Shown piece after piece: positions 3,181 through 52,560 of a stretch of DNA of 64,000 bases (within the stretch, counting starts at the first letter, position 1; every line of letters begins with the position of its first letter). The stretch covers positions 15,681-79,680 of the forward strand of contig JAFXLD010000043.1 in assembly GCA_017531385.1 (NCBI GenBank). Direction: 5' to 3'. The notes below the pieces were generated by a model that was not told where the DNA came from, ran no database searches, and saw only the letters and a list, made by a program, of their open reading frames with translations. Source of the stretch: Clostridia bacterium. Lineage in GTDB: Bacteria > Bacillota > Clostridia > Oscillospirales > Acutalibacteraceae. Position numbers and translations under genes: made by a program.

Positions 3181-3708
3181 TTATTTGGTCGGTTTTGCGG
3201 CAAGGAACATGAGCATCGTACGGCCGTCAAGTTTTGCGGGCTTTTCGATGTTACCGTTTTCCGAGCACATTTCGGCAAATCTGGCCATGATTTCAAGTCC
3301 TCTTTCGGGATGAGCCATTTCTCTTCCTCTGAAACGGATTGCAACTTTTACCTTGTTACCCTGTTTCAGGAACTTGTTTGCATTTTTGGCCTTTGTTTCC
3401 AGGTCATGCGTATCGATGTTGAGAGAAAGCTGAACTTCCTTGATATCGATCTGATGCTGATTTTTCTTAGCTTCCTTTTCTCTCTTCTGCTGCTCAAATC
3501 TGTACTTACCGTAGTCCATAATTTTGCACACGGGAGGCTTAGCCTGAGGAGCAATTTTAACGAGATCAAGATTCTTCTGAGCTGCAATTCTGAGTGCATC
3601 CGAAGCTGACATAATGCCGAGCTGTTCACCGTCATCAGTTACAACACGGATCTCCTTGTCACGGATATCCTCATTCAGCTGCACGTCCTTAGTATCCTTA
3701 GTACCGAT
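3181..3708 (-). CDS. infC: Translation initiation factor IF-3, probable non-AUG (AUC) start
   Basis: IF-3 sequence begins at ...[34 protein letters not shown]...[14 protein letters not shown]... The N-terminal 62 codons of the track ORF cover the promoter and leader and are not IF-3-like. GGAGG sits 9 nt upstream of the in-frame ATC at 3708-3706. This gives 175 aa, a normal IF-3 length. The exact start is unproven. Confidence 0.88.
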
Positions 3709-3714
3709 GTTCAA

Positions 3715-3860
3715 ACACCTCCAAATAGAATAAACAAAGCGCAGACGTAAAACACCTGCACTCATACAATAACACCCGAAAATAATCATCGGGAAAGATA
3801 TTGACCTTACGAGAATGATGTCTGCAAGGTGAGCACACAATGTGTCTACTTTGTTTTGCT
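3715..3860 (-). promoter_or_regulatory. Putative L20-responsive leader (L20_leader-type) of the infC-rpmI-rplT operon
   Basis: About 150-nt untranslated leader between a consensus promoter and infC. A long-range pairing joins AAACAAAG (near the 5' end) with CTTTGTTT (just before a U-rich tract and the SD). Position and gene context match the Firmicute L20 leader. The family assignment was not verified by a covariance model. Confidence 0.45.
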
Positions 3861-3865
3861 TTGAC

Positions 3866-3894
3866 ATTATAATACAACTTTTCCGGTTTGTCAA
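3866..3894 (-). promoter_or_regulatory. SigA-type promoter of the infC operon
   Basis: The minus strand reads TTGACA-17 nt-TATAAT, a perfect consensus for both hexamers and spacing. Confidence 0.65.
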
Positions 3895-3991
3895 GAGGAA
3901 AAATTAAAAATATTTCATTTTTTAACAGCAGGAAGTGAATAAATAAAACTCTGCTAAGTTCAGTCATTCATTCACTTCTCTGCATTAGTAA

Positions 3992-5527
3992 TTATTTTTC
4001 AGTATTCCAGAATTTCCTGTCAAGACTTCTGTACTGCAAAGCCTCCGAAATATGTTTTATGTCAATTTTTTCTGCACCGTCAAGGTCTGCAATCGTTCTT
4101 GCCAAACGCAGAATTTTGTCATATGCTCTTGCAGAAAGACCGAGATTATCAAAAGAATTCTTCAGTACCATCGAAGCAGGCTCCGTCAATATACAGAATC
4201 TGCGTGTCATTTCAGCAGTCATATGAGCATTAGATTTAATATCGGTACCTTCAAAACGCTTTGTCTGGATGCGTCTTGCTGTATTGACTCTTGCTCTGAT
4301 AAGCTCTGATGACTCTCCTCTTGACGAATCCGAAAGGTCATCAAAATTCACCTGTGGCACTTCAATATGAATGTCAAGTCTGTCAAGCAGCGGTCCGCTG
4401 ACTTTTGAAAGATACCTTGCAGGTGCACCTGTAGGACAAGTACACTTTCTTGTGGCATGACCGAAATATCCGCAGGGACAAGGGTTCATTGCACATACAA
4501 GCATAACCGAGCAGGGATATGTAAGCGTACCGGCAACTCTTGAAATCGTAACAACTCCGTCTTCAATCGGCTGTCTGAGAGCTTCCATTGCGTTTTTTGC
4601 AAATTCGGTAAGTTCATCGAGAAACAAAACGCCGTTATGTGCAAGAGAAACTTCGCCCGGTTTCGGAATCGAACCACCGCCCGAAAGTCCCGGAGCAGAC
4701 ACGGTATGATGAGGTGAACGGAACGGTCTTTTTCTGATAAGAGGTACATCTTTCGGAAGTATCCCAGCGACAGAGAATATCTTTGTAGTTTCAAGAGATT
4801 CTTCAAATGTCATATCGGGAAGAATTGATGGAATACGCTTTGCAAGCATACTTTTACCCGATCCGGGAGGACCTATCATCATAATATTATGACCGCCTGC
4901 AGCTGCAACTTCAAGCGCTCTTTTTGCTTGAAACTGACCTTTGACATCAGCAAAATCAGCATCAAAAAACAGTTTTTCGTTATCCTGAGAATCTTCAAAA
5001 ACAGCCGGTGCAATAAGTTCTTTGCCCGTAAGATGATTAATAAGCTGCTTTATGTCTTCAACCGCATAAACTTCTATTCCGTCAACAACAGAAGCCTCTG
5101 CTTCATTATCTTTCGGCACAAAAATCTTTTTTATGCCGTTATTTCTTGCTTCAATAACCATCGGAAGCACACCATTAACATGATGCACTTCACCACCGAG
5201 CGACAATTCACCGAGAAATGCACAACTCTCTATATCACACACAAGCTGTCTTGATGAAAGCATAAGAGCAATAAGGATAGGCAGATCATAAATCGGACCT
5301 TCCTTTTTTATATCTGCAGGTGCAAGATTCACCGTAATATGAACAAGAGGAAAATCATAACCGCTGTTTTTCATGGCAGCTCGTACTCTTTCCCTTGACT
5401 CACTGACAGCAGCATCAGGCAGTCCCACAACATCAAATTTTGCTTTTCCCATTGATATATCTGCTTCAATATCCACCATATATGAATGCATGCCGATTAT
5501 TCCGACACTTGTAACCGTTGAAAACAT
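3992..5527 (-). CDS. YifB/ComM-family Mg-chelatase-like AAA+ ATPase
   Basis: Has the Lon-protease-like N-domain, Walker A (MMIGPPGSGKSM), LFLDELTEF, and the Cys cluster CAMNPCPCGYFGH..CTC typical of YifB/ComM. Start placed at MFSTVTS. Confidence 0.9.
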   Translation of the reverse strand: MFSTVTSVGIIGMHSYMVDIEADISMGKAKFDVVGLPDAAVSESRERVRAAMKNSGYDFPLVHITVNLAPADIKKEGPIYDLPILIALMLSSRQLVCDIESCAFLGELSLGGEVHHVNGVLPMVIEARNNGIKKIFVPKDNEAEASVVDGIEVYAVEDIKQLINHLTGKELIAPAVFEDSQDNEKLFFDADFADVKGQFQAKRALEVAAAGGHNIMMIGPPGSGKSMLAKRIPSILPDMTFEESLETTKIFSVAGILPKDVPLIRKRPFRSPHHTVSAPGLSGGGSIPKPGEVSLAHNGVLFLDELTEFAKNAMEALRQPIEDGVVTISRVAGTLTYPCSVMLVCAMNPCPCGYFGHATRKCTCPTGAPARYLSKVSGPLLDRLDIHIEVPQVNFDDLSDSSRGESSELIRARVNTARRIQTKRFEGTDIKSNAHMTAEMTRRFCILTEPASMVLKNSFDNLGLSARAYDKILRLARTIADLDGAEKIDIKHISEALQYRSLDRKFWNTEK

Positions 5528-5609
5528 GATAAGTCTCCTTATGAACATTTGTTCAATATAATTTTACAATAAATATTTTTATTTGTCAACAAAATTATGC
5601 AAAAAATAT

Positions 5610-5637
5610 TTGCATTTGCATAAAAATGGTATATAAT
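5610..5637 (+). promoter_or_regulatory. Candidate promoter of the phosphohexomutase gene
   Basis: TTGCAT-16 nt-TATAAT. An inverted repeat ATGCAAA-N5-TTTGCAT (5597-5615) overlaps the -35 hexamer. Confidence 0.4.
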
Positions 5638-5671
5638 ATAAGATGAATTTATTTGTAAAGGAACGAGTGTT

Positions 5672-7393
5672 ATGACAGATTACAATTTCTTATACGAACT
5701 TTGGCTCAAAAATGCAGTCAATGATCCGGATCTTAAAGATGAACTCGAAAATATACAAGGTAACGATGCGGAAATTCTTGATCGCTTTTACAGAAGTCTT
5801 GAATTCGGCACAGGCGGTCTGCGTGGCGTAATTGGTGCAGGGACAAACAGAATGAATGTTTACACCGTTGCACAGGCAACACAGGGGCTTGCAAATTATC
5901 TTAACGAAGAGTTTGAAGAGCCTTCCGTTGCCATCGGTTATGATTCAAGAATCAAATCTCAGCTCTTTGCTGAAACTGCTGCAGGTGTTCTTGCCGCAAA
6001 CGGCATCAAGGTTTATATCTATTCCGAGCTTATGCCCACTCCCATGATTTCCTATGCCGTAATGCGACTTCATTGCAGTTCAGGTATCGTTATCACAGCG
6101 AGCCACAATCCTTCAAAATACAACGGTTACAAATGCTATGATTCCAAGGGTTACCAGATGACCGATGAAGGTGCAAAGAAAACTTACGATTATATCAGTA
6201 ATGTTGATATCTTCAATGATGTAAAATCAATGAGCTTTGATGATGCACTTGCAGAGGATATGGTTGACTTTATCGAAGACTGGCTTATTGATGATTTCTA
6301 CAGCGACGTTCTTTCACGTCAGATTGAAAAAGGCATCTGCAAAAAAGCCAACCTTAAAGTCATATACTCTCCTCTTAACGGCACAGGCAACAAGCCCGTT
6401 AAATCAATCCTTAAAAAAATCGGTGTAAAAGACCTTAAAATAGTTCTTGCTCAGGAAAAACCCGACGGTAACTTCCCCACCTGCCCATTCCCCAATCCCG
6501 AAATCCAGCAGGTGTTTGAAGAGGGCATGAAGCTGACTGCTGATTTCCCTGCAGACATTATGCTTGCAACCGACCCTGACTGTGACCGTGTTGGTATTGC
6601 TGTGCGTCACAACGGTGAATACAAGCTTATGACAGGTAACGAAGTCGGTTGTATGCTTACGGAATACATCCTTTCAAGAAAGAAAGCTCAGGGCACACTC
6701 TGCGATAATCCTGTTGTTGTAAAGACAATTGTTACAACAGAACTTATCAGAGCCATTGCAAAGGAATATAACGCAGAAGTTTTTGATCTTCTTACAGGCT
6801 TTAAATATATCGGTGAACTTATTGAACAGCTCAAAGACAAGGGCGAAGAAGACCGTTATGAAATCGGTCTTGAAGAAAGCTACGGTTACCTTACAGGTAC
6901 TCATGCAAGAGATAAGGATGCTGTCAACGCTTCAATGATGATTATTGAGATGGCTGCATACTATAAAACTCAGGGCTTGACACTTGTTGACGTTATGAAC
7001 AGCCTTTATGAAAAACACGGTATGTACCTCAATTCACTTCTCAACTTCGGTTTTGAAGGTGCTGACGGTATGAAGAAAATGGCTGACATGATGGATTCAA
7101 TGAGAAACAATCCTCCCGCAGAAATCGGCGGAATCAAAGTTGAAAAAGTTTCGGATTATCTCACAGGCAAGGCAACTGACACCGCAACAGGCAATACTGA
7201 AACAATTGATCTGCCTTCATCAAATGTTCTTTCCTACTCTCTTACAGATGACAACAAGGTTGTTGTAAGACCTTCAGGAACTGAACCCAAAATCAAAATT
7301 TATATCACTGCACATTCCGATACAAGAGAAAATGCAGAAAAACTTACAGATGTAATTGCAGAAAGTATTAAGAAAATAGCAGGTATTGAATAA
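5672..7393 (+). CDS. Phosphoglucomutase/phosphomannomutase-family phosphohexomutase (PgcA-like)
   Basis: 573 aa with active-site loop ITASHNPSKYNGYK, metal loop ATDPDCDRVG, and sugar/phosphate loops GLEESYGY and RPSGTEPKIK. Confidence 0.88.
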   Translation: MTDYNFLYELWLKNAVNDPDLKDELENIQGNDAEILDRFYRSLEFGTGGLRGVIGAGTNRMNVYTVAQATQGLANYLNEEFEEPSVAIGYDSRIKSQLFAETAAGVLAANGIKVYIYSELMPTPMISYAVMRLHCSSGIVITASHNPSKYNGYKCYDSKGYQMTDEGAKKTYDYISNVDIFNDVKSMSFDDALAEDMVDFIEDWLIDDFYSDVLSRQIEKGICKKANLKVIYSPLNGTGNKPVKSILKKIGVKDLKIVLAQEKPDGNFPTCPFPNPEIQQVFEEGMKLTADFPADIMLATDPDCDRVGIAVRHNGEYKLMTGNEVGCMLTEYILSRKKAQGTLCDNPVVVKTIVTTELIRAIAKEYNAEVFDLLTGFKYIGELIEQLKDKGEEDRYEIGLEESYGYLTGTHARDKDAVNASMMIIEMAAYYKTQGLTLVDVMNSLYEKHGMYLNSLLNFGFEGADGMKKMADMMDSMRNNPPAEIGGIKVEKVSDYLTGKATDTATGNTETIDLPSSNVLSYSLTDDNKVVVRPSGTEPKIKIYITAHSDTRENAEKLTDVIAESIKKIAGIE

Positions 7394-14366: not shown

Positions 14367-14403
14367 ACAGTTTTCGCAATCCGGATACTGTATGCGTTTT
14401 TTT
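14362..14403 (+). terminator. Riboswitch expression-platform terminator
   Basis: CGUGUACAGU (14362-71) pairs with ACUGUAUGCG (14387-96): 10 bp including G-U pairs. It is followed by UUUUUUU (14397-14403). Confidence 0.65.
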
Positions 14404-14460
14404 AATATCAGATTGCTCTCTTATCAGTCAAAATTTTTTTGGGAAAGGGCGAAAAAAAAC

Positions 14461-17175
14461 ATGAACTTTTACAGAGAAGAAGTAGATACCGTATTAAAAG
14501 AAGTCGGTTCATCTTCTGCAGGTCTTACATCGGCAGAAGCCGCAACAAGACTTGAGAAAAACGGTAAAAACAAGCTCAAACAGGCTGAAAAAGATTCCCT
14601 TTTAAAGAGATTCTTTGCGCAACTTACAGACCCGATGATTATCATTCTGTTGGTTGCGGCAGGTATTTCCGCTTTGCTTTCAATTCTTGCATTGACAGGT
14701 GTAGTTGAAGGCGAAAGTGAATTTGCAGATGTTATAATCATCCTTACAGTTGTTCTCATCAATGCAGTTCTCGGTGTTTATCAGGAAAGTAAAGCCGAAA
14801 AAGCAATTGAGGCACTGCAGGAAATGTCAGCCGCCACAACAAAAACTCTCCGTGACGGAAATGTTGTTGCAGTTAAGAGTGAAGATCTTGTTGTCGGCGA
14901 CGTTATCGTACTTGAAGCAGGTGATGCTATTCCTGCAGACTGCCGTATCATCGAATGTGCAAGCATGAAGATTGAAGAGGCTGCACTTACAGGTGAGTCC
15001 GTTCCCGTTACAAAAATGCTTGATGTCATCAACGGCAAAAAAGAGGATGCAGTTCCTCTCGGTGACAGAAAAAATATGGCATATATGGGTTCAACACTTG
15101 TATACGGCAGAGGTAAAGCTGTTGTTGTTGCAACAGGTATGGATACAGAAATGGGTAAAATTGCAGATGCTATCGCTTCTGCAGAAGAAGGTGAAACTCC
15201 CCTTCAGAAGAAGCTTTCACAGCTGAGTAAAATACTCACATTCCTTGTTATCGGCATTTGTGTATTCATCTTCGGCTTCCAGCTTGTAAAGACATTTGTA
15301 AGCGGTTCGGCACTTGATTTCTCTGTTGTTCTTGACTTCTTTATGGTTGCTATTTCTCTTGCTGTTGCTGCCATCCCCGAAGGTCTTGCCGCAGTTGTTA
15401 CAATTGTTCTTTCAATGGGCGTTACAACAATGTCCAAGAAAAACGCTATCATCAGAAAGCTCACTGCAGTTGAAACACTCGGTTGTGCGCAGATAATCTG
15501 TTCAGACAAAACAGGTACTCTCACTCAGAATGTCATGACAGTTGTTGACTCATACTGCGAGGATGAAAAGAATCTTGCAACTATGATGTCACTTTGTACA
15601 GACGTTACAGTCAACAGCGACGGTACAGTTACCGGTGAACCCACAGAAGCTGCTCTTGTTAACTTTGCAATAAAGCTTGGTCTTAACAAAAATGACCTTC
15701 AGGAAAAAATGCCCAGAGTTGCTGAAGCTCCTTTCGATTCAGGCAGAAAGATGATGTCTACACTTCACAAAACAGCAAACGGCATTGTTCAGTTCACAAA
15801 GGGTGCTCCCGATATCGTTGTAAGTCTTTGTAAATATGCTCAGTTTGAAGGCAAAGTTGTTCCCATGAGCGACGAAATCAAAGCAAAGATTTCTGCAGAA
15901 AACAAGAGAATGGCAGACAAGGCTCTCCGTGTTCTTGCCTGTGCAATGAAAAAATATCCCGAAATTCCCGCATCTACAGAACCTGCTGATCTTGAAAATG
16001 AAATGGTTTTCGTAGGTCTTACAGGTATGATTGATCCTGTCCGTCCTGAAGTAAAAGATGCAATTAACGAATGCAGAAGTGCAGGTATCACACCCATTAT
16101 GATTACAGGTGACCACAAAGATACTGCAGTTGCAATCGCAAAGGAACTCGGCATTATTTCAGACGAAAAGAATGCCATGACAGGTGCAGACCTTGAAAAG
16201 CTTTCTGACGAAGAATTTGACAATGTTGTTACAAATACATTCGTTTATGCCCGTGTTCAGCCCGAACACAAAACAAGAATCGTTACAGCATGGAAGAAAA
16301 AAGGCTATATCACTGCTATGACAGGCGACGGCGTTAACGATGCACCCTCAATCAAGAGTGCTGATATCGGTGTCGGCATGGGTATCACAGGTACAGACGT
16401 TACAAAGAATGTTGCAGACATGGTTCTTGCAGACGATAACTTTGCAACAATCGTTTCAGCAGTCGGTGAAGGCAGAAGAATTTATGACAACATCCGTAAA
16501 GCTATTCAGTTCCTTCTCGGATCAAACCTCTCGGAAGTTCTTTCTATCTTCTTTGCAACACTTCTCGGCTTCACAATTCTTGAAGCTCCCCATCTTCTCT
16601 GGATCAACCTTGTTACTGACTGCTTCCCTGCACTTGCTCTCGGTGTTGAAAAGCCCGAAAGCAACATCATGAAGAGAAAACCCAGAAGCACAAAAGACGG
16701 CATATTCTCAGGCGGTCTCGGTATTGATGTTCTCTATCAGGGTGTACTTGTAACACTTCTGACAATGGCTGCATACTTCGTTGGTGTAAACAGCGTAAAC
16801 GGTTTCAACTGGGATCTTTCAACATGGCAGTTCACAAACATTCAGCTTGGTACACCTGCAGGTCACCTCGGCACAACAATGGCATTCCTTACAATGTCAA
16901 TGTGTGAAATCTTCCATTCACTCAACATGCGTTCTCAGAGAGGCTCTATCTTCACAATGGCATTCAAGGGCAGCCACAACATTCTTCTCTATGGCTCAAT
17001 GATTGCAACACTTGTTCTTACAACACTTGTTATTGAAGTACCTTTCCTTGCAAATGCTTTTGATTTTGAAAAGCTCGACCTTGTTCACTATGGAATAGCT
17101 CTTGCAATTGCATTCCTTATCATTCCGATTGTTGAAATTGTAAAAGCAATTCAGCGTGCTACTGCAAAAAAATAA
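14461..17175 (+). CDS. P-type cation-transporting ATPase, Ca2+ (PMCA/SERCA-like, P2) type
   Basis: 904 aa from MNFYREEV. Motifs: TGES, PEGL, DKTGTLT, KGAPD, TGDGVNDAPS. The track ORF start at 14392 lies inside the terminator and is rejected. Confidence 0.9.
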   Translation: MNFYREEVDTVLKEVGSSSAGLTSAEAATRLEKNGKNKLKQAEKDSLLKRFFAQLTDPMIIILLVAAGISALLSILALTGVVEGESEFADVIIILTVVLINAVLGVYQESKAEKAIEALQEMSAATTKTLRDGNVVAVKSEDLVVGDVIVLEAGDAIPADCRIIECASMKIEEAALTGESVPVTKMLDVINGKKEDAVPLGDRKNMAYMGSTLVYGRGKAVVVATGMDTEMGKIADAIASAEEGETPLQKKLSQLSKILTFLVIGICVFIFGFQLVKTFVSGSALDFSVVLDFFMVAISLAVAAIPEGLAAVVTIVLSMGVTTMSKKNAIIRKLTAVETLGCAQIICSDKTGTLTQNVMTVVDSYCEDEKNLATMMSLCTDVTVNSDGTVTGEPTEAALVNFAIKLGLNKNDLQEKMPRVAEAPFDSGRKMMSTLHKTANGIVQFTKGAPDIVVSLCKYAQFEGKVVPMSDEIKAKISAENKRMADKALRVLACAMKKYPEIPASTEPADLENEMVFVGLTGMIDPVRPEVKDAINECRSAGITPIMITGDHKDTAVAIAKELGIISDEKNAMTGADLEKLSDEEFDNVVTNTFVYARVQPEHKTRIVTAWKKKGYITAMTGDGVNDAPSIKSADIGVGMGITGTDVTKNVADMVLADDNFATIVSAVGEGRRIYDNIRKAIQFLLGSNLSEVLSIFFATLLGFTILEAPHLLWINLVTDCFPALALGVEKPESNIMKRKPRSTKDGIFSGGLGIDVLYQGVLVTLLTMAAYFVGVNSVNGFNWDLSTWQFTNIQLGTPAGHLGTTMAFLTMSMCEIFHSLNMRSQRGSIFTMAFKGSHNILLYGSMIATLVLTTLVIEVPFLANAFDFEKLDLVHYGIALAIAFLIIPIVEIVKAIQRATAKK

Positions 17176-17302: not shown

Positions 17303-18037
17303 ATGACAGGACTCGGCACAATTATAAATACTGCTGCGATAATTGTCGGCGGATTAGGTGGTATGATTTTCGGTAAAAAAATTCCCGATCGTTTACAGGA
17401 TACAATAATGAAGGCAAACGGTGTCTGCGTTATATTCATAGGAATCGCAGGTGCTCTGCAGGAAATGTTCACTATTTCTCCCGAAGGTAAACTCCAAAGC
17501 GGCGGCACAATGATGATGATCGGCTGTATTATAATCGGCTCCATTATCGGTGAAATTCTCAACATTGAACATCATCTTGAAACATTCGGAGAATGGCTCA
17601 AACGCAAGACAAAAAGTGACAAAGACACAGGCTTTGTTGACGGTTTTGTAACTGCATCACTTACCGTCTGCATCGGTGCAATGGCAGTCGTAGGCGCTGT
17701 ACAGGACGGCATAAACGGCGATTATTCCGTTCTTGCGGCAAAATCAGTTCTCGACCTTATTATTATAATGGTAATGACTGCATCAATGGGCAAAGGCTGT
17801 ATTTTCTCCGCTATTCCAATTGCTGTTTTCCAGGGGTCAATCACAATTCTTGCAACATTTATTGAACCCGTTCTTACCGAAACTGCCCTCTCCTACCTCT
17901 CACTTACAGGCTCAATGCTGATTTTCTGCGTCGGTGTCAATCTCACATGGGGCAAAATGATAAAAGTCGCAAATATGCTCCCCACAATTTTTATAGCCGT
18001 GATATGGGCTTTGGTTGAAAAGCTTATTGCGGTATAA
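17303..18037 (+). CDS. DUF554-family integral membrane protein (YdfK/YqgA-like)
   Basis: 244 aa, polytopic and hydrophobic. The N-terminus MTGLGTIINTAAIIVGGLGG and the internal GAVQDGINGDYSVLAAKSVLD resemble DUF554 proteins. Confidence 0.7.
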   Translation: MTGLGTIINTAAIIVGGLGGMIFGKKIPDRLQDTIMKANGVCVIFIGIAGALQEMFTISPEGKLQSGGTMMMIGCIIIGSIIGEILNIEHHLETFGEWLKRKTKSDKDTGFVDGFVTASLTVCIGAMAVVGAVQDGINGDYSVLAAKSVLDLIIIMVMTASMGKGCIFSAIPIAVFQGSITILATFIEPVLTETALSYLSLTGSMLIFCVGVNLTWGKMIKVANMLPTIFIAVIWALVEKLIAV

Positions 18038-18040
18038 CTC

Positions 18041-18069
18041 TTGACAATACATAATTTAACTGCTATAAT
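18041..18069 (+). promoter_or_regulatory. SigA-type promoter (perfect consensus, extended -10)
   Basis: TTGACA-17 nt-TATAAT, with TGC immediately upstream of the -10 hexamer. Confidence 0.65.
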
Positions 18070-18103
18070 TCAGAAAAAACACAATAAAAGGCTGGTGGAC
18101 AAA

Positions 18104-18157
18104 ATGACGAATCTTAATTTCCGAAATCGGAGAACCGTTTTGTCCGTTTGTGATTGA
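18104..18157 (+). CDS. Possible 17-codon leader peptide ORF (MTNLNFRNRRTVLSVCD)
   Basis: The ATG is preceded by GGUGG with a 5-nt spacer. The ORF spans both arms of the leader helix and stops 25 nt before the terminator stem. This is purely a sequence observation. Confidence 0.2.
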   Translation: MTNLNFRNRRTVLSVCD

Positions 18158-18181
18158 TGTAATAAATCTTTCTGAATTAAC

Positions 18182-18221
18182 AAGGCATCTCCGTATTCCG
18201 TGAGATGCTTTTTGTTTTTTT
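18182..18221 (+). terminator. Leader terminator
   Basis: AAGGCAUCUC-loop-GAGAUGCUU followed by UUUGUUUUUUU. The SD (AAGGTG) and ATG of the first gene follow immediately. Confidence 0.7.
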
Positions 18222-18233
18222 AAGGTGTTTAAT

Positions 18234-18719
18234 ATGAAAAAAATTATAATAATCGGCTGTCCGGGCAGCGGAAAAAGTACATTTGCCCGTAGTTTGCATG
18301 AAAAAACAGGCATACCGCTGTATTATCTCGATATTCTGAAATGGAATGCGGATAAAACTACTGTTTCAAAAGAAGTATTCCTACATAGACTTAATAATGT
18401 TTTATCAGAGAGCGAATGGATAATTGACGGAAATTATGCATCTACAATGGAACTGAGAGTGTCAATGTGTGACACTGTTTTCTTTCTTGATTATGACCTT
18501 GATGTTTGCCTTTCTGGCATAAAAGAACGACAGGGGAAAACCCGCCCTGATATGCCGTGGGTTGAAACAGAAGATGATGAAGAATTTATAGAATTTATAA
18601 GGAATTATAATACTCTGAATCGTCCGAAAGTTCTGGAAATATTAAAGAATAACAGAGATAAAGATATATTTGTTTTTAAAAACAGAGATGAAGCAGAATT
18701 ATATTTAAAAATGAGGTAA
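18234..18719 (+). CDS. P-loop NTPase, adenylate-kinase-like / topology-modulation (FlaR)-like small kinase
   Basis: 161 aa from MKKIIIIGCPGSGKSTFARSL (Walker A at the N-terminus, NMP-kinase-like size). SD AAGGTG lies 6 nt upstream. Confidence 0.7.
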   Translation: MKKIIIIGCPGSGKSTFARSLHEKTGIPLYYLDILKWNADKTTVSKEVFLHRLNNVLSESEWIIDGNYASTMELRVSMCDTVFFLDYDLDVCLSGIKERQGKTRPDMPWVETEDDEEFIEFIRNYNTLNRPKVLEILKNNRDKDIFVFKNRDEAELYLKMR

Positions 18720-18725
18720 CGTATT

Positions 18726-21017
18726 GTGATAAAAAGTCATATTGAATTCAAAAACGGAAAACCTTTTATAAACATTGACGGTGAACTTCATTCACCACTT
18801 GCATACACAACATATTTTGAGGAATGCGGTGAATTTTCTGATTTTATCAGAAGCGGTTACAGGATGTTTTTTGTGAATGTTTCCTTTACGGATCTTGCAA
18901 TAAACAATGTTTCGTTTTTTTCACCGTTCCTGACAGGTGTTTTTGAGGGTGATGCTCCTGATTATAATGAATTTGACGGTATTGTCAGAGAAATTTTATC
19001 TGAATGTCCCGATGCATTGATTTTTCCCAGAATCAACATTGCTATGCCCCGCAATTGGATTGAAAAAAACATATCAGAATGCGTTGAAACACCGTCAGGG
19101 TTGAGAGAGTCGCTCTGTTCCGAAAATTTCCTTTATGACGGTGCAGAGCTTCTGAAAGAGCTTGTTTCGCATATCCGATCTGCTGATTATTGTAACAGAA
19201 TTGCAGGATATCAGATATGCGGCGGTACAACACAGGAATGGATGCATCACGATATGGCAGGTTCGTTTTCTGAAAAGAGTTTCGATAAATTCCGTCTGTG
19301 GATGAAAGAAAAATACAATATAAATGATGTTCAAGAAATCACAAAAGATGACTTGTTTAGAGAAGGTCTTGATGAAACTGTCAGCCGATATTGGGAATTC
19401 TGCTGCAAATCGGCTTCACATGCCGTTGAGCACTTCTGTAAGGTGCTGAAAGACTACATAAATAATGAACAGGTCGCAGGTGTTTTCTACGGATATAATG
19501 CTTTTGTAAACGACCCTCTTCTCGGGCTTCTGGGTCTCAGACACATTATTGATTCACCCTATATCGACTTTTTCTCGTCGCCTTGTTGCTATGACGGAAA
19601 CAGAAAACTCGGCATTGACTGGGGTGATATGCTTCCTGCTGAAACCGTAAAAAATCACGGAAAACTTTATTTTGTGGAGTGTGATATAAGAACATACCTC
19701 ACACGAAGAATGCAGGATTCCCGTCCCGGTCGATATCCTGATAACATCCTCACTCTCACAGATGCTGAGGGGAATAAAACTGTGTGGTGCGGTCCCGAAA
19801 CAAAAGAACTTTCGCTTTCTGCTATCCGTAAAGCATTCGCACATCAGCTCACAAAAGGCTCAGGAATTTGGTGGTTTGATATGTGGGGCGGTTGGTATCA
19901 CGATGATGAAATTATGGCTGAAATGAAGAAAATGAAAGAGATTGCAGAGTCTTCAACAGAAAAAGATTCTGAGCATTTCCCACAGGCACAGACAGTTGTT
20001 TTTATTGATGAAAAAGCATATTTCAATAATCCCAGAGGCAGTCACTATTGTCATTGCGTAAATATCACAAGAGTTGCGATGGGTAATACGGGCATTCCTT
20101 TTGACACATGCATGACGGAAGATGCAGAGAAAGTGCTTCATAAATATAAAGCTGCAATTTTTACGGCTCCGTTGCCGTCAGAAAGCGGCAGAAAAGCCCT
20201 TGAAATGTGCAGAAAAATGAATATTCCGTATATTCAGGCAGATACCGAAAAATCATGGTTTACAACCGATGAATTGCGTGATTTACTTGTATCAAAGGGT
20301 GTTCATTGCTATAATTCCGACGGAAATGTAGTGTATTGCGGTGGTGGTTTTATCGGTATTCACACTGTAAATGACGGCATTGTTGATATTTCACTCCCTG
20401 AAATATACAGAGTCAGACAACTTCTCGGAACAGGTTATGCAGAGCGTGAAACGGACAAAATTTCACTGTATATGAAAACACATGATACCATTTTATTTGA
20501 GTTATACAGAAATGAACTCTGGGATATTTATGACATCAACCGCAATAAAACAGGCAGAACAGTCGAGCGTGGCAAACCGATGTCGCAGGATGAATACCAT
20601 ATAGTTGTTAATGTGTGGATTAAGAATTCGGACGGCAGATGGCTTATTTCAAAACGCTCACCGAACAAGCATTACGGTAATCTGTGGGAATGTTGCGGAG
20701 GGTCTGCTGTTTCAGGAGAAGACAGTCTTACTTCTGCTATACGTGAAGCAACAGAAGAACTCGGCATTGAGCTAAAACCTGACAACGGACACCTTTTTAC
20801 ATCTGCAATCCGTCAGTACAGAACTTTTCCCGATTTTCTTGATGTTTGGGTATTCAATCAGGATGTTGATATAAATACAGTTGTTCTGCAAGAGGAAGAA
20901 ACCTGCGATGCAAAATGGGCAACAAGTGAAGAAATTCTTACTATGGCAGAAAACGGTGAATTTATACCTCTGACAGTTTTCCCTTATCTTGAAAAACTGT
21001 TTGAAAGTGAGAGTTGA
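18726..21017 (+). CDS. Fusion protein: N-terminal glycoside-hydrolase-like (GH42/GH35-type TIM-barrel-like) region plus C-terminal Nudix hydrolase
   Basis: 763 aa with a GTG start behind GAGGT. The N-terminal ~600 aa loosely follows the GH42 layout (...PRNWIEKN...IAGYQICGGTTQEWMHH...FDKFRLWMKEKYN...). This part of the assignment is tentative. The C-terminal ~165 aa has a canonical Nudix box GSAVSGEDSLTSAIREATEELGI (about 20697-20768). Confidence 0.65.
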   Translation: MIKSHIEFKNGKPFINIDGELHSPLAYTTYFEECGEFSDFIRSGYRMFFVNVSFTDLAINNVSFFSPFLTGVFEGDAPDYNEFDGIVREILSECPDALIFPRINIAMPRNWIEKNISECVETPSGLRESLCSENFLYDGAELLKELVSHIRSADYCNRIAGYQICGGTTQEWMHHDMAGSFSEKSFDKFRLWMKEKYNINDVQEITKDDLFREGLDETVSRYWEFCCKSASHAVEHFCKVLKDYINNEQVAGVFYGYNAFVNDPLLGLLGLRHIIDSPYIDFFSSPCCYDGNRKLGIDWGDMLPAETVKNHGKLYFVECDIRTYLTRRMQDSRPGRYPDNILTLTDAEGNKTVWCGPETKELSLSAIRKAFAHQLTKGSGIWWFDMWGGWYHDDEIMAEMKKMKEIAESSTEKDSEHFPQAQTVVFIDEKAYFNNPRGSHYCHCVNITRVAMGNTGIPFDTCMTEDAEKVLHKYKAAIFTAPLPSESGRKALEMCRKMNIPYIQADTEKSWFTTDELRDLLVSKGVHCYNSDGNVVYCGGGFIGIHTVNDGIVDISLPEIYRVRQLLGTGYAERETDKISLYMKTHDTILFELYRNELWDIYDINRNKTGRTVERGKPMSQDEYHIVVNVWIKNSDGRWLISKRSPNKHYGNLWECCGGSAVSGEDSLTSAIREATEELGIELKPDNGHLFTSAIRQYRTFPDFLDVWVFNQDVDINTVVLQEEETCDAKWATSEEILTMAENGEFIPLTVFPYLEKLFESES

Positions 21018-21020
21018 TGT

Positions 21021-21932
21021 ATGAGCACTGAATTAATAAAACCCATTGTTGAAAAGATAATGAATACCGAGGTTAAAAGAATCCGTGCTATAGGTAAAGG
21101 TGCAAGCGGAAGTGTTTATCTTACCAAAATCTCAACCGAGCCTTTTGAAATCGCCGTCAAAACGAGCAAGTATTATGATGCCGTTTGCAAGGAACGTGCA
21201 ATGCTTGATTTTCTTTCGCCTAAGGTTTCATACAAAGTTCCGAAAACTTATTTCATACACAGAGAAAATGACACAGTATTTCTGGGAATGGATTACATCA
21301 AAGGCATGAGCGGTAAAAGTAAATATATAAACTTTATTCCGTCAAGAAAGCGGCTCAGGAACAGCATTATTGATGCTCTTATGAATGCACAAAGCGTGCA
21401 TAACGAGAAATTCGGTAAATATGATAATCCTGTTTATGACACCTGGGCTGAGTATTATAAAGATTATTTCGTTGATATTTACACCTTTACCAAAGCAAAG
21501 TTTGAGAAAAACGAGATTGAAGCCGAGATTATGGAAGCTGTTGAACTTATCAAAAAGAATTTCGATGAAATATTCAACGATACAAACAACACGGCATGTC
21601 TGTGTCATGGTGATTTCTGGATGCCGAATCTGATTATAGATTTTTGGAAATCCGAACTTGCAGGAGCAGTTGACCCGTTTGACATGCTGTGGGCAGAATC
21701 TGAATATGAACTCTTCTGCCTGACACTCGGATTCGGTGAAAAACTGAAACTCTATGATGAATATAAAAGAAGAAATCTGACTTCAAGATACTGTGATTTA
21801 AAGGTTGAAATGTATGCTCTGTGTAACGAACTGAACTGGTATATTCTTTTAGGGGAAATGGGACATGATTATCTTTTGTTCCGTGCAAAAAGACTTATAA
21901 AGATTATGAAAGAAATGGGATTGGAGCAATGA
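21021..21932 (+). CDS. Phosphotransferase-family kinase (APH/fructosamine-kinase-like fold)
   Basis: 303 aa with Gly-rich loop IGKGASGSVY, catalytic-loop motif HGDFWMPNL (HxDxxxxN), and downstream VDPFD. Confidence 0.7.
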   Translation: MSTELIKPIVEKIMNTEVKRIRAIGKGASGSVYLTKISTEPFEIAVKTSKYYDAVCKERAMLDFLSPKVSYKVPKTYFIHRENDTVFLGMDYIKGMSGKSKYINFIPSRKRLRNSIIDALMNAQSVHNEKFGKYDNPVYDTWAEYYKDYFVDIYTFTKAKFEKNEIEAEIMEAVELIKKNFDEIFNDTNNTACLCHGDFWMPNLIIDFWKSELAGAVDPFDMLWAESEYELFCLTLGFGEKLKLYDEYKRRNLTSRYCDLKVEMYALCNELNWYILLGEMGHDYLLFRAKRLIKIMKEMGLEQ

Positions 21933-22801
21933 TGGAGTTTATATCAAAAGAACCCATAAATAAAGGTTGGTCGTGTGACAAGAAATACTGTGTCACAACT
22001 GTTGATGGCACAAAATATCTTTTGCGTGTTACTCCTTTTGAAAAGAGTGCAAACCGTAAAAATATGTACTTAATGCAAAAAGAGGTTGAAAAACTCGGTG
22101 TCCCTATGTGCAAGCCTGTTGATTTCGGCAAGTGTGACGAAGGTGTTTATACTTTACAAACCTGGATTGACGGTAGGGATGCAGAAGAGGTTGTGCCTTT
22201 TCTTGCAGATTCAGAACAGTATGCACTGGGTCTGCAAGCAGGCAGAATTTTAAAGAAAATTCACTCGATTCCTGCTCCCGTGTATCAACCTGATTGGGAA
22301 GAGCGATTCAATAAGAAAATGGACAGAAAAATTCAGATGTATAATGACTGTCCCATAAAATTCGATGGTGCTGAACATATCATTGATTACATAGAGTCTA
22401 ACCGACATTTACTGAAAAACAGACCGCAAGCTTATCAGCACGGAGATTATCATATAGGTAACATGATGATAGAAAACGGAAAAATCGTAATCATAGATTT
22501 TGACCGTTTTGATTTCGGTGACCCATGGGAAGAATTCAACCGTATTGTGTGGTGTGCTCAGTCTGCTCCCGTTTTTGCATCAGGTATTGTCAATGGCTAT
22601 TTTGACGGCGAAGTACCTATGGATTTTTGGAAACTTCTTGCACTTTATATCAGTAGTAATATGCTTTCATCAATCCCGTGGGCAATTCCTTTCGGTGACG
22701 GTGAAGTTCAGACAATGCTGAATCAGGCAAAAGATGTTCTTAAGTGGTACGACAATATGCTCAATCCCGTGCCGACTTGGTACACAAATAATAAAAACTG
22801 A
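21929..22801 (+). CDS. Phosphotransferase-family kinase (aminoglycoside-phosphotransferase-like fold)
   Basis: 290 aa with HGDYHIGNMM (HxDxxxxN) and IIDFDRFDFGD. Its start overlaps the upstream stop (ATGA). Confidence 0.72.
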   Translation: MMEFISKEPINKGWSCDKKYCVTTVDGTKYLLRVTPFEKSANRKNMYLMQKEVEKLGVPMCKPVDFGKCDEGVYTLQTWIDGRDAEEVVPFLADSEQYALGLQAGRILKKIHSIPAPVYQPDWEERFNKKMDRKIQMYNDCPIKFDGAEHIIDYIESNRHLLKNRPQAYQHGDYHIGNMMIENGKIVIIDFDRFDFGDPWEEFNRIVWCAQSAPVFASGIVNGYFDGEVPMDFWKLLALYISSNMLSSIPWAIPFGDGEVQTMLNQAKDVLKWYDNMLNPVPTWYTNNKN

Positions 22802-22912: not shown

Positions 22913-24586
22913 ATGAGTATTTTAAAAACAGTAATTTCACTTCTTATGTCGTTTTTTATGCTTATCACAAACAGCATTACGGCTATTATTCCGGGCAATC
23001 TGCCTGAAACAAAGTCTGAAAAAGAACTGCTCAGAATGTCGGATATTTTCGATAAATATTCTCTTGCAGAGGAGATTTATGTTGTCAGAGGTGGGATTAC
23101 AAAGGATGAACTTGCGGCAATCCAGTCACTTCAGGGACTGGTAAGCAGAGACAAAGCGACCATTTTTATTAACTACGGCGTTGACTCAAAGACTGAACTT
23201 GAAGAGCTTAAAAATGCCGGTCACAAGCTCGTTTATACCGATGAAAACGGCGCAAACTGGACACTTAAAAACCTTGTGCCCCGTTTCGCATCTTACATAA
23301 AAGACAACGGATATGTTCTGTTCAAAGATTCCGACACTACCGAACAGATAAATATGGCTTTTAATTATTCAACTGTTTTCGGTTGGCTCGCAGTGCCTGC
23401 ATCTGCTGAAAGCATTGTAAAAGAGCTCGGGCTGAAAAAAATTGAAGATCTTACGGATGATGTAATCACAATTTCCTGTCAGCGTGATTTTTATGAAAAA
23501 TACAAGGACGAATTCAGAAAAGATTCTCTGGTTCACCTTTACGCAGAGGCCTCGGGACTTCGTGATTTCGCCATTCAGCAGAAAATTTTCATCACATTTG
23601 CAAAAGATGATGATTACATTGCCCGTGCATTCCGTGAGGAATTGCTTAAAGACCTTGAACCTGCTTCAGTTATTCTCGGCTGGTGTCAGTATGAGGTTCA
23701 GTATACAGAAGCTGTTTCAGCATTCGGTCATTATGTTGTGCCGTCAGATCACAGCTTCAACATGAGTATACTCAACTGCCTTGATCTTGGTGAAATCAAA
23801 CTCGGCAGCGAAACTCAGGCACCTGAGCTTGACCCCACAAAGCATTATGTGGCAATCGTATACAGTGACGGTGACAACGCACAGTGGATATCAAATGGTT
23901 TCAGAGAATTCCACACGTGGCAGACATTCGATATCGACACTCCGATAACATGGACATTTGCTCCTCTTATGAATGAATTTTCACCCGTTGCAGTAAAGAA
24001 AGCAACAGAAAATGTTGGCGATGATTCATTTATTACAGGTCCTTCGGGTGTAGGTTATGCGAGAATTTCAAAAATGTCTGCAGAAGAGCTTGAAAGCTAC
24101 TCTGATCTGACAGCCGCAATAATGCTGAAAACAGGCTTAACCACAATAACACTTCTTGATGAACCTCTTAATCTTCCCCAAAATGTATTTATTAACAAGC
24201 TCAGCTATTTTGCAAGATATGATAACATAAACGGCGGTATTCTGCAGATTGACCCCTCAAGATATGAAGGCGGTAAGGGCAAAGTTTTCTTTGCAGGTGA
24301 CAAACCCTTCGTCAGTGTCCGTTTGTCACTCTGGCACCCCTCGGGCAATGCCGATGAAGTGACACAGGAATGGCTGAAAGAACAGGCAGACATTGTCAAC
24401 AGCTACCCTGCTGATATAAATTCAATTAATGGTTATTCGGTAATAAATGTTCATCCATGGACTGTAGGTCCCGATGATTTAGCATATTTCGTCAGTCAGC
24501 TTGATGACGGTGTTGAAGTGATTTCCGCAGATGAACTTATATCTGCAATAACACAGAACGTTCCTCACAAAACAGCAGAACCCTGA
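22913..24586 (+). CDS. Membrane-anchored/secreted protein, GxGYxYP-family putative glycoside hydrolase (tentative)
   Basis: 557 aa with an N-terminal hydrophobic anchor MSILKTVISLLMSFFMLITNSITAI. The segment GPSGVGYARI resembles the GxGYxYP motif. The family call is from memory only. Confidence 0.5.
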   Translation: MSILKTVISLLMSFFMLITNSITAIIPGNLPETKSEKELLRMSDIFDKYSLAEEIYVVRGGITKDELAAIQSLQGLVSRDKATIFINYGVDSKTELEELKNAGHKLVYTDENGANWTLKNLVPRFASYIKDNGYVLFKDSDTTEQINMAFNYSTVFGWLAVPASAESIVKELGLKKIEDLTDDVITISCQRDFYEKYKDEFRKDSLVHLYAEASGLRDFAIQQKIFITFAKDDDYIARAFREELLKDLEPASVILGWCQYEVQYTEAVSAFGHYVVPSDHSFNMSILNCLDLGEIKLGSETQAPELDPTKHYVAIVYSDGDNAQWISNGFREFHTWQTFDIDTPITWTFAPLMNEFSPVAVKKATENVGDDSFITGPSGVGYARISKMSAEELESYSDLTAAIMLKTGLTTITLLDEPLNLPQNVFINKLSYFARYDNINGGILQIDPSRYEGGKGKVFFAGDKPFVSVRLSLWHPSGNADEVTQEWLKEQADIVNSYPADINSINGYSVINVHPWTVGPDDLAYFVSQLDDGVEVISADELISAITQNVPHKTAEP

Positions 24587-24600
24587 TTAACAGACGCAAC

Positions 24601-24632
24601 AACGGACTCAGAATTTTTCTGAGTCCGTTTTC
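24601..24632 (+). terminator. Intrinsic terminator
   Basis: AACGGACTCAG-AATTTTT-CTGAGTCCGTT followed by TT (the T-run overlaps the 3' arm). Confidence 0.7.
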
Positions 24633-24649
24633 ATATGCTTTTATATTAA

Positions 24650-25276
24650 TCAGTAAAGTGACATAACTGCCTTTTCAATTTGTTCTGCTACTTTTTCAAC
24701 AGTTCCGTCGGCATTGATTACAACGATATTTTCTTTATCTTTAAGTGAATCAATCACATTATAAAATCTTTTGCGTATACTGGTAAGGTACTCTGTGTTT
24801 TCATATATTTCAATCTCATCTGCGTTTCTGTTTGCATTGATGCGCTCCATGCTCTTTTCAGGCAGAAGATCAAGAAAAATACAAAGGTCGGGTTTTCTGA
24901 TGTCCTCACAGTCAAGATTCAGGCTCATAAGCCAATCAAGCCCAACATCAACACCCTGATATGCAAGAGTTGAGTAATAATATCTGTCAGAAATGACAGT
25001 ATCACCCTTGCCTATGTGCATATTTATACCGTCTTCGGGATTGAGATTATGGTCGATTCTGTCAGCTGTAAAAAGCAATGCAAACTGGCTTTTTGTAACC
25101 CTTTTTCTGCCCGAAAGCACTTCACGGCACATTTTTCCGAACTCATGAGGTGTCGGCTCTGCCTGATTTATAACATTAATTCCCTTTGATTTAAGCTTTT
25201 CTGTTATGATATTTGTCTGAGTGGTTTTTCCTGAGCCGTCAAGGCCTTCAATAACAATAAATTTTCCTTTTTCCAT
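24650..25276 (-). CDS. tmk: Thymidylate kinase
   Basis: 208 aa, MEKGKFIVIEGLDGSGKTTQ...EPT...DRYYYSTLAYQ. Confidence 0.92.
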   Translation of the reverse strand: MEKGKFIVIEGLDGSGKTTQTNIITEKLKSKGINVINQAEPTPHEFGKMCREVLSGRKRVTKSQFALLFTADRIDHNLNPEDGINMHIGKGDTVISDRYYYSTLAYQGVDVGLDWLMSLNLDCEDIRKPDLCIFLDLLPEKSMERINANRNADEIEIYENTEYLTSIRKRFYNVIDSLKDKENIVVINADGTVEKVAEQIEKAVMSLY

Positions 25277-40869: not shown

Positions 40870-40885
40870 TTATATATAAAAGCAT

Positions 40886-40916
40886 AAAAATCCCTCATAT
40901 ACGAGGGATTTTTTTA
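40886..40916. terminator. Bidirectional terminator between hom and spoIIID
   Basis: AAAAATCCCTC-ATATAC-GAGGGATTTTTTT. A second hairpin, GGTCGC-N9-GCGACC GTTTTC, follows at 40930-40957. Confidence 0.65.
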
Positions 40917-40968
40917 CTTTACAGGAAATGGTCGCATCGATACAGCGACCGTTTTCTTATATATCTCT

Positions 40969-52275: not shown

Positions 52276-52560
52276 GAAAAACTCCGTCTCAACAAAGAGA
52301 CGGAGCATAAGTCCGTGGTACCACTCTAATTGGTGAAAAATCACCCACTCAATTCACACATCGGGCACGAAGCCGAATATGCTACTTCATTAACGATGAA
52401 GCTCCGTTCTTCCTACACGACCGCCTTAAAGACGGTGTTCAGTCGACCGCTCGAAGGAGAGATACGATCACTCACGGCTACAACCTCACACCACCCGGTT
52501 GCTCTCTGAAAACACCGCTACGAATGACCCTTTAGCCTTGTCATTGCGTTTATCTGTATT
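52276..52560 (-). promoter_or_regulatory. T-box leader (leucine operon)
   Basis: The minus strand carries Stem I elements (AGAGAG, distal GGUGGUGUGAGG, CUUCGAGCG K-turn side) and the T-box sequence AAUUAGAGUGGUACCACGG. The terminator is CUCCGUCUC-UUUGUU-GAGACGGAG plus UUUUU (52276-52306). Leu codons CUC and CUG occur at the two possible specifier positions. Confidence 0.85.

Follow-up and report, generated by a model that had tools for sequence, protein, structure and literature searches.

A probable ribosome-dependent transcription attenuator family at the head of variable enzyme operons in uncultured gut Clostridia

Introduction

The leader of vmlR, which encodes an ABC-F factor in Bacillus subtilis, carries a short upstream open reading frame (uORF) inside its anti-antiterminator hairpin SL-1, and an initiating ribosome stalled by lincomycin triggers the switch (PMC9226507). 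In Listeria monocytogenes, the rli80-hflXr (lmo0762) and lmo0919 leaders are induced by lincomycin or erythromycin, and mutation of the start codon locks them in the OFF state (PMC6310831). The present analysis concerns a leader at positions 18041 to 18233 of a 64,000-nucleotide stretch of DNA from a Clostridia bacterium of the Acutalibacteraceae (GenBank assembly GCA_017531385.1, contig JAFXLD010000043.1); the whole stretch is called the window below, and positions without a locus label refer to it. This leader contains three features of attenuators of the vmlR, hflXr and msrD kind, namely a uORF under selection with its own Shine-Dalgarno (SD) sequence, an intrinsic terminator between the uORF and the first structural gene, and an antiterminator that overlaps the terminator 5' arm. 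Conserved parts, complementarity between them, a kept reading frame and an in-silico dependence on ribosome position all speak for a ribosome-dependent (leader-peptide) transcription attenuator, a reading to which we assign a probability of about 0.65. The element belongs to a previously uncatalogued, conserved leader family of uncultured gut Clostridia, of an attenuation type that is already well known.

Results

A conserved leader outside the catalogued RNA families

Direct reading of the window sequence places every feature of the original prediction where it had been assigned: promoter, helix (here called P1), small inner hairpin, terminator, the CGGAGA:UCUCCG pairing, a 17-codon open reading frame (ORF) and its spacing from GGUGG (Table 1). 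The promoter scores 12/12 with the TG extension, which ranks it at the top of 20 promoter-like sites in a 6.5-kb scan, and transcription would start near 18076. Folding the 159-nucleotide (nt) leader gives z = -3.85, and none of 200 dinucleotide shuffles equals it.

The leader also remains unclassified, as proposed. Scanning the whole window against Rfam 15 at gathering score yields no match in 18041-18233, RF00230 (T-box) included, and at E <= 10 the stretch 17950-18300 shows nothing beyond snoRNA and miRNA noise (E = 0.3-1.7). Only one sequence in the window passes a gathering score, a full-length RF00230 T-box on the minus strand (52293-52553; 94.1 bits, cut-off 93). The leader peptide and DNA strings led to no relevant paper in the literature searched.

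Homologues of the kinase encoded by the first gene behind the leader were collected, and 80 genome loci encoding them were retrieved and searched by nhmmer with the window leader. Homologous leaders were found in 7 of these loci, often 1.3-3.5 kb upstream of the kinase and heading a longer operon rather than adjoining it. A pattern scan of metagenome contigs added six leaders, while 8 of its 14 hits were discarded as chance matches lacking a terminator or the family context. Contigs with further kinase homologues supplied another six, and a covariance model built from 14 members recovered one clearly divergent leader, L014, at 39.5 bits. The total is 21 distinct leaders, the window (with a single copy) and 20 others; L095 was excluded as truncated. 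The sources are metagenome-assembled genomes labelled Acutalibacteraceae, Oscillospiraceae or Clostridia, from ruminant and other animal guts, together with metagenome contigs. Over 78 pairs, the leader and the kinase coding sequence have the same nucleotide identity, 0.74, and such similarity would not be expected of functionless intergenic DNA at this divergence. Of the 21 leaders, 19 have a promoter of 10/12 or better whose spacer measures 17 nt, and the distance from the -10 box to GGTGG stays between 18 and 24 nt.

Other candidates were set aside. Scanning viral contigs for AGGCAGGTGGACAAAATG produced one chance match in a GC-rich gene (L105); weak covariance-model matches in L082, L079, L060 and L069 are plain terminators or unrelated; and the match in L107/L108 (26 bits) consists of the end of a gene for a protein of 533 amino acids (aa) plus a similar terminator. 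The model's weak matches elsewhere in the window, at 40804-40966 and 24586-24708 (18-21 bits, E ~0.1-0.4), are probably ordinary terminators. Lone leader-like terminators, with neither P1 nor ORF, stand just upstream of the kinase in L011 (3940-4003, after der) and L107 (5870-5925, after the 533-aa gene). Their sequences, GCATCTCC...GGGGATGC and GGGCATCTTC...GGAGATGCC, resemble that of the leader, and they are possibly remnants of lost leaders.

Table 1. Positions in the window of the leader elements and of the operon behind them
Feature	Position	Strand	Details
Promoter, sigma-70-type	18041..18069	+	-35 TTGACA 18041-18046; 17-nt spacer; extended -10 TGcTATAAT 18061-18069
P1 5' arm GCUGGUGGACAAAAUG	18091..18106	+	holds SD and AUG of leader ORF
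SD sequence GGUGG	18094..18098	+	inside P1 5' arm; 5 nt before AUG
Leader ORF, 17 codons + TGA, MTNLNFRNRRTVLSVCD	18104..18157	+	ATG 18104; TGA 18155-18157
Antiterminator 5' strands CGGAGA 18128-18133 and GUUUUGU 18137-18143	18128..18143	+	fold of 18126-18196
P1 3' arm CGUUUUGUCCGUUUGU	18136..18151	+	codons 11/12 to 16 of leader ORF
Antiterminator inner stems and apical hairpin	18146..18177	+	includes stop codon; weakly supported
Antiterminator 3' strand ACAAGGC-A-UCUCCG	18180..18193	+	overlaps terminator 5' arm
Intrinsic terminator	18182..18221	+	stem 18182-18193 with 18199-18211, then U-tract UUUUGUUUUUUU ending 18221
Controlled operon, four genes	18234..22801	+	Pfam and NCBIfam scans
P-loop (adenylate-kinase-like) kinase	18234-18719	+	start ATG 18234
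763-aa GH42-like protein fused to C-terminal NUDIX	18726-21017	+	Pfam/NCBIfam; AlphaFold2 and Foldseek for residues 1-600
Fructosamine-kinase/APH-like gene	21021-21932	+	
APH-family kinase	21929-22801	+	

P1, antiterminator and terminator as predicted alternative structures

The original prediction described an 8-bp helix of GGACAAAA (18097-18104) with UUUUGUCC (18138-18145). This core exists, but the actual helix is about 16 base pairs (bp) long, includes the SD sequence and the AUG, and would act as an anti-antiterminator. The window has ten contiguous pairs (18097-18106 with 18136-18145), and the family consensus from RNAalifold is a 16-bp helix of GCAGGUGGACAAAAUG with CGUUUUGUCCGUUUGC, which in the window contains one U-U mismatch. 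Across the 21 sequences, 95.8% of P1 cells are paired, compared with 42-53% in slid registers, and the window hairpin has an energy of -16.4 to -16.8 kcal/mol, while family members span -12 to -22 kcal/mol. In a model-based alignment of the same sequences, P1 and the terminator jointly have 96.7% of cells paired against 42-53% when slid; seven pairs are changed on both sides, and none of 500 shuffles reaches the observed values. For P1 itself, the alignment suggests conservation and wobble-compatible changes, and not covariation, as the basis of support. The UCCG-AAAU-CGGA hairpin inside P1 is present in the window (18120-18131), but it is not conserved in homologues and was rejected as a conserved anti-antiterminator.

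The terminator hairpin (18182-18211) folds with -13.9 kcal/mol and z = -5.8. Its family consensus, an RNAalifold helix of 10 bp, is 98.1% paired in the 21 sequences, and six of the ten pairs have changed on both sides.

The pairing of CGGAGA with UCUCCG had been proposed as the antiterminator, and it is indeed the outer helix of one; it does not stand alone as 6 bp, but belongs to a long composite hairpin. Besides the contact of CGGAGA with UCUCCG at 18188-18193, GUUUUGU pairs with ACAAGGC at 18180-18186. Further inside, GUUUG (18146-18150) meets UGAAU (18173-18177), GA (18152-18153) meets UC (18171-18172), and GAU (18156-18158) meets AUC (18166-18168); an AU-rich apical hairpin, GAUAU..AUAUC or GAUU..AAUC, recurs by eye in most homologues. 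The segment 5' of the P1 3' arm, with consensus GGAGAGCC and window sequence CGGAGAACC, pairs with GGC-A-UCUCC of the terminator 5' arm. In the window, the antiterminator fold of 18126-18196 has -19.7 kcal/mol and z = -3.3, and the full hairpin ranges from -11 to -26 kcal/mol in the family.

The predicted choice between terminator and antiterminator is supported by comparison: the pairing is kept in all 21 leaders, including variants of changed sequence. Outer-duplex energies run from -8.3 to -15.1 kcal/mol in the 21 leaders, while shuffled 5' strands average -3 to -6 kcal/mol and match the observed energy in 0.15-6% of trials. The outer helix has 91.7% of cells paired, against 35-49% when slid, with two doubly changed pairs. 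In L012/L113, a C-G pair of the antiterminator has become U-A, and the terminator 3' arm is changed to match. In L109 the two strands read GAAAUG and UCUUC instead of GGAGAG and UCUCC, and 9 bp remain (AUGCC:GGCAU plus CGAA:UUCG). L014, with a different terminator, has an unrelated pair, AAAUCAGA:UCUGAUUU, in the same place.

Of the 16 nucleotides in the P1 3' arm, the antiterminator takes up 6-14 in the family and 12 in the window; because it reuses this arm, P1 and the antiterminator exclude each other. P1, antiterminator and terminator are thus predicted to be three mutually exclusive structures of similar stability, in the classical anti-antiterminator, antiterminator and terminator arrangement. 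An 11-nt perfect inverted repeat, TAATTCAGAAA / TTTCTGAATTA at 18067-18077 / 18168-18178, was also considered as a P1-like outer helix or an operator. Its first copy overlaps the -10 box, its second lies within the antiterminator inner stem, and the repeat was rejected on account of the overlap and its absence from most homologues.

A leader ORF conserved in frame

The leader ORF spans both the CGGAGA segment and the P1 3' arm. Its SD sequence extends to GAAAGGCAGGUGG in most homologues and is invariant or nearly so in the alignments. The ATG and an open frame of 17, 18 or 22 codons are present in 21/21 leaders, which encode 18 distinct peptides; across these 18 ORFs the reading frame has no stop, against 42 stops in the +1 frame and 16 in the +2 frame. 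The ORF indels (-3, +15 and -3 nt) are all multiples of three; those in the linker and the terminator loop have arbitrary lengths. The stop codon, interchangeably TGA or TAA, falls 14-17 nt after the start of UUUUGUC.

The encoded peptide shows little conservation. Its first half varies freely yet is rich in Met and Asn, and the C-terminal half and stop position are the most conserved parts. V-L-S-V-C looks conserved because the P1 3' arm coincides with ORF codons 12-17, so that the conservation lies at the nucleotide level; in the V-L-S-V-C-D region, synonymous changes are no more frequent than amino-acid replacements (V to L or F; C to P; D to A or N). To judge from the alignment, this is what one expects where translation of an ORF matters and its product does not; an aptamer would have a conserved loop. 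The leader ORF is probably translated. The original prediction had called for a comparison of homologous loci, and here the structures and the open frame prove to be kept, while the peptide sequence is poorly conserved and P1 covariation slight. Its proposal that the ORF is placed so that a ribosome decides which structure forms agrees with the conserved frame, the in-frame indels and the conserved promoter. A minus-strand ORF of 85 aa (18056-18313) was rejected because it covers both the leader and the start of the kinase gene, and in most homologues these two lie apart.

Part of this evidence could also be read without translation. In a translation-independent RNA switch, P1 or the leader would bind a metabolite, protein or RNA, and the ORF would be a by-product of the helix sequence. 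RNA pairing would then explain the conserved half of the "peptide" and the frequent replacements in V-L-S-V-C-D, and the sequestration of SD and AUG in P1 is odd for an ORF meant for translation. The frame statistics, the in-frame indels and the proper SD-AUG spacing point the other way. So does the ~24-nt P1 loop, which is variable in the homologue alignment and, unlike an aptamer, has no conserved unpaired nucleotides, covarying sub-helices or shared sub-structure. The leader matches no aptamer family in Rfam and forms one long hairpin with no conserved multi-helix core. A switch of this kind is quite improbable, and the metabolite riboswitch that had been offered as the alternative is accordingly disfavoured.

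Ribosome position and the predicted switch

Ribosome masking was modelled with RNAfold on the first 15 leaders collected, each ending directly behind the terminator 5' arm; a 27-nt mask was placed around each possible P-site. This folding of the pre-decision transcript replaced equilibrium mask folding with the full terminator, which was uninformative since the terminator dominates. With no ribosome, ten leaders give the antiterminator a probability under 0.15 and the other five one of 0.31-0.98. A P-site on codons 1-2 raises this probability to 0.8-0.96 in 15/15 leaders, including L014, and in 13 of them the effect still holds at codon 4. For P-sites on codons 6-14 the probability is mostly below 0.3, reaching ~0.6 in a few leaders, and on the last two codons it rises again to 0.4-0.9 in most.

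These values suggest the following sequence. The strong promoter would produce a leader RNA of ~145 nt, in which the 16-bp P1 helix would form by default, pairing the ORF's SD and AUG with its own 3' codons. With the antiterminator segment held in P1, the terminator hairpin would form and transcription would stop before the first gene. A ribosome moving at normal speed would be on codons 9-13, over the antiterminator 5' strand, as the terminator emerges, and termination would again follow. A ribosome held at the start or on the first 3-4 codons would block the P1 5' arm and free the downstream strand, which could join the emerging terminator 5' arm in the long antiterminator hairpin, allowing RNA polymerase to enter the operon. 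Read-through would accordingly be inducible. Beyond the existence and complementarity of the parts, these steps are what we infer from the arrangement. In principle, the outer antiterminator helix could also form from the P1 loop; naked RNA would then read through, and only active translation would terminate. In either pseudoknot case, the operon would be on when early translation fails.

The renewed rise at the end of the ORF raises the question of a TnaC-like arrest at the stop codon, in which the C-terminus A-V-L-S-V-C-D-stop would stall the ribosome, keep P1 open and so give the antiterminator. The C-terminal half and the stop position are indeed the best-conserved parts of the ORF, but the conservation is at the nucleotide level and explained by P1, and the C-termini differ: L014 ends in DVVLSAK, L012 in VLSVPD and L013 in VLSFCA. 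A ribosome there would moreover cover the inner stems and leave the outer helix to close across it, which is sterically doubtful. An antiterminator produced by a last-codon ribosome is thus unlikely, and arrest at the stop codon as the working principle very unlikely.

Evidence that weighs against attenuation

Several points count against a ribosome-dependent attenuator. The source organism is uncultured, and the case is built on sequence comparison and folding. SD and AUG lie in P1, the antiterminator reuses the P1 3' arm, and masking switches the structures as expected, but the model is free of pseudoknots, so that "P1 closed = no antiterminator" is partly built into the mask result, and P1 covariation is near zero: only 1 of 16 pairs shows a double-sided change, and wobble-preserving changes are matched in number by unpaired cells. 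Covariation of the outer antiterminator helix is weak as well, as 29-42 of 500 shuffles score as high. P1 also hides the SD and AUG, which leaves only a short co-transcriptional window for initiation on the ORF. No conserved arrest motif is present in codons 1-5 of the homologue ORFs. No recognised resistance determinant lies downstream, where NCBIfam APH, CPT, AAC and Gar hits stay far below their cut-offs. Finally, once the full terminator is present, it wins at equilibrium in most homologues under any mask. The terminator being favoured in most members, the switch must be kinetic, as in other attenuators.

The same equilibrium preference would suit a locus with no regulation at all, where the terminator, constitutive but leaky and used in part by the upstream gene, stands behind a promoter and is accompanied by incidental alternative pairings. 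The similar terminators that stand alone after unrelated genes in L011 and L107 fit such a view. Without a function, however, one would not expect a promoter directly before a strong terminator, with the ~110 nt between them conserved like a protein gene in 21 lineages, nor a complementarity between ORF segment and terminator arm that survives sequence changes. The absence of regulation is a far-fetched explanation of these facts.

The operons behind the leader

In the window, the leader is preceded by a P-type Ca-ATPase gene (14392-17175) and a DUF554 membrane protein gene (17303-18037), and followed by the four-gene operon of Table 1, whose first SD sequence, AAGGUG at 18222-18227, is not sequestered. 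The first gene encodes a P-loop (adenylate-kinase-like) kinase and not an APH-fold protein; a PDB sequence search gave no match for it. Residues 1-600 of the 763-aa protein fall into a conserved ~594-aa "hypothetical" family with 744 homologues and no Pfam domain. Their AlphaFold2 model (pLDDT 78.6, pTM 0.84) resembles GH42 glycosidases of the PDB in Foldseek, at E = 1e-15 to 1e-12, TM ~0.6 and 10-12% identity. The NUDIX fusion appears unusual, as nearly all homologues of the ~594-aa part are 587-600 aa long.

Operons behind the 21 leaders contain 3 to >12 genes and vary greatly in content. GNAT acetyltransferases and S-adenosylmethionine (SAM) methyltransferases are numerous, along with P-loop kinases (CPT-like ones among them), histidine phosphatases and NUDIX hydrolases; the GH42-like 594-aa protein, radical-SAM and AP-endonuclease-2-fold proteins, a GrpB-HAD fusion and a phosphodiesterase also occur. 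Such a gene set is compatible with small-molecule detoxification or modification.

The arrays of related genomes (L111, L115, L109, L117) are hypervariable, with 3 to >12 genes, and look like a cassette-like hotspot. The array of L111 (3220-12489) has the window's flanks, DUF554 and GxGYxYP, with different genes between them, while L115 (5072-13327), L106 and L113 have only the upstream flank (P-type ATPase plus DUF554) in common with the window. An identical kinase protein occurs in L003, followed by the 594-aa form (stretch 3493-6486) and then directly by GxGYxYP, with neither NUDIX part nor APH genes, and in L002 (3493-5751) with a 752-aa form; compared with window positions 18726-22801, this is a strain-level gain or loss of the NUDIX/APH block. 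In L091 (reverse strand; oriented 4410-5924), a GNAT domain in a leader-controlled operon continues in frame into a serine recombinase (Recombinase, Zn_ribbon_recom, DUF4368), probably through insertion of a mobile element.

Candidate signals

An element of this design would report trouble in early translation, which makes lincosamides, pleuromutilins and streptogramin A the lead candidate signals; broader translation stress is possible. A drug-induced attenuator had been suggested on the strength of two APH kinases downstream. This link is weak: APH genes stand behind only 2 of the 21 leaders (the window and L115), and no resistance-model cut-off is reached. The downstream proteins falling below the cut-offs, the claim of a "resistance attenuator" is lowered, while that of the mechanism is not. 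Drug induction is suggested by the architecture alone, and a drug as the natural signal is conceivable at rather less than even odds. Macrolide-type +x+ arrest at R-N-R is an unlikely trigger of read-through, as a ribosome there would cover the antiterminator strand, and R-N-R-R is present in some members only.

The same attenuator might instead answer a physiological signal, such as a shortage of charged tRNA for Met or Asn, low ribosome availability or a stringent-type slowdown, with the operon as a stress or house-cleaning set. Met and Asn are strongly enriched in codons 2-9 (window positions 18107-18130), at 27/144 and 34/144 over the 18 distinct peptides, and codon 3 is AUG in most members. 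The operons, with their GNATs, methyltransferases, NUDIX hydrolases, histidine phosphatases, kinases and GH42-like proteins and no recognised resistance gene, would fit, and the whiB7 uORF is described as sensing alanine starvation as well as antibiotics (PMC10274678). Against this, the window leader, L012/L113 and L014 have no internal Met codon, codon identity at positions 2-5 is not conserved, and no Met or Asn biosynthesis or transport genes lie downstream. We regard a physiological signal as unlikely.

Implications

On a bolder reading, less likely than not, the leader would be a generic sensor of early-translation stress standing in cis to a hypervariable, cassette-like array of small-molecule-modifying enzymes in Oscillospirales from the guts of ruminants and other animals. 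The array may then be an inducible detoxification or resistance island, and its GNATs, P-loop, CPT-like and APH kinases, methyltransferases, NUDIX and GH42-like proteins may include uncharacterised enzymes that inactivate antibiotics or xenobiotics. If the attenuator model is right, the leader is a widespread and easily recognised element that marks operons switched on when early translation is disturbed. It would offer a handle on dozens of enzymes without assigned function, including GNATs, kinases, methyltransferases, NUDIX hydrolases and the conserved 594-aa GH42-like protein, and a route to drug-modifying activities that may be inducible in the gut microbiomes of livestock and humans. Its contribution to RNA biology would be a uORF whose SD sequence and start codon pair with its own 3' codons, so that initiation, anti-antitermination and antitermination would be coupled within ~60 nt. 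The known principles of attenuation are unchanged.

Comparison with known systems

Amino-acid leader peptides (trp, his, leu, thr) share with this family a leader ORF, pairings of the 1:2/2:3/3:4 type and an intrinsic terminator. Unlike them, it has no regulatory codon run common to all members, since Met and Asn are enriched yet missing from several; its downstream genes are not biosynthetic, and its predicted ON window covers codons 1-4 and not a mid-ORF codon run.

In the erm, cat and cmlA leader peptides and the msrD leader (PMC10314930), as may happen here, a drug-bound ribosome stalled on the leader ORF remodels downstream pairing. The erm and cat leaders work mainly by translation attenuation, unmasking the SD sequence of the resistance gene, and depend on particular nascent-peptide motifs, whereas here the read-out is an intrinsic terminator, the SD sequence of the first gene is free and no arrest motif is conserved.

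The uORFs of whiB7 in mycobacteria (PMC10274678) and toiL in Escherichia coli (PMC12121999) are presented in these reports as broad sensors of translation stress, a role that the leader ORF here may share. With msrD, toiL and whiB7 the likeness is looser than with vmlR and rli80-hflXr; none of these five is related to the leader in sequence, and toiL relies on Rho-dependent termination. The whiB7 regulon includes eis, a GNAT, and the induced set contains acetyltransferases and other drug-modifying enzymes, a likeness to the GNAT-rich operons described here. The whiB7 system acts through a transcription factor and a regulon, whereas here the enzyme genes lie in cis.

The rli80-hflXr leader has a uORF of ~14 codons that overlaps an anti-antiterminator, in a three-state arrangement like the one predicted here (PMC6310831). 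It differs in its downstream genes and in its RLR macrolide-arrest motif; in those members of the present family that have R-N-R-R, a ribosome stalled there would cover the antiterminator strand.

The vmlR leader differs in having an ORF of 3 codons, compared with 17-22 here, and a single-stranded SD sequence, whereas here SD and AUG lie in a helix whose 3' arm falls within the ORF. The two share no sequence similarity, the NusG pause motif TTNTTT was not seen by eye in the leader, and the genes controlled here encode enzymes with unassigned substrates in place of an ABC-F protein. The predicted likeness lies in the design: a constitutive promoter, the start of a short uORF inside an anti-antiterminator hairpin, and a peptide sequence that is not critical. 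In vmlR, an initiation-stalled ribosome blocks SL-1, the antiterminator forms and the intrinsic terminator is bypassed (PMC9226507), and the leader family described here would work in the same way.

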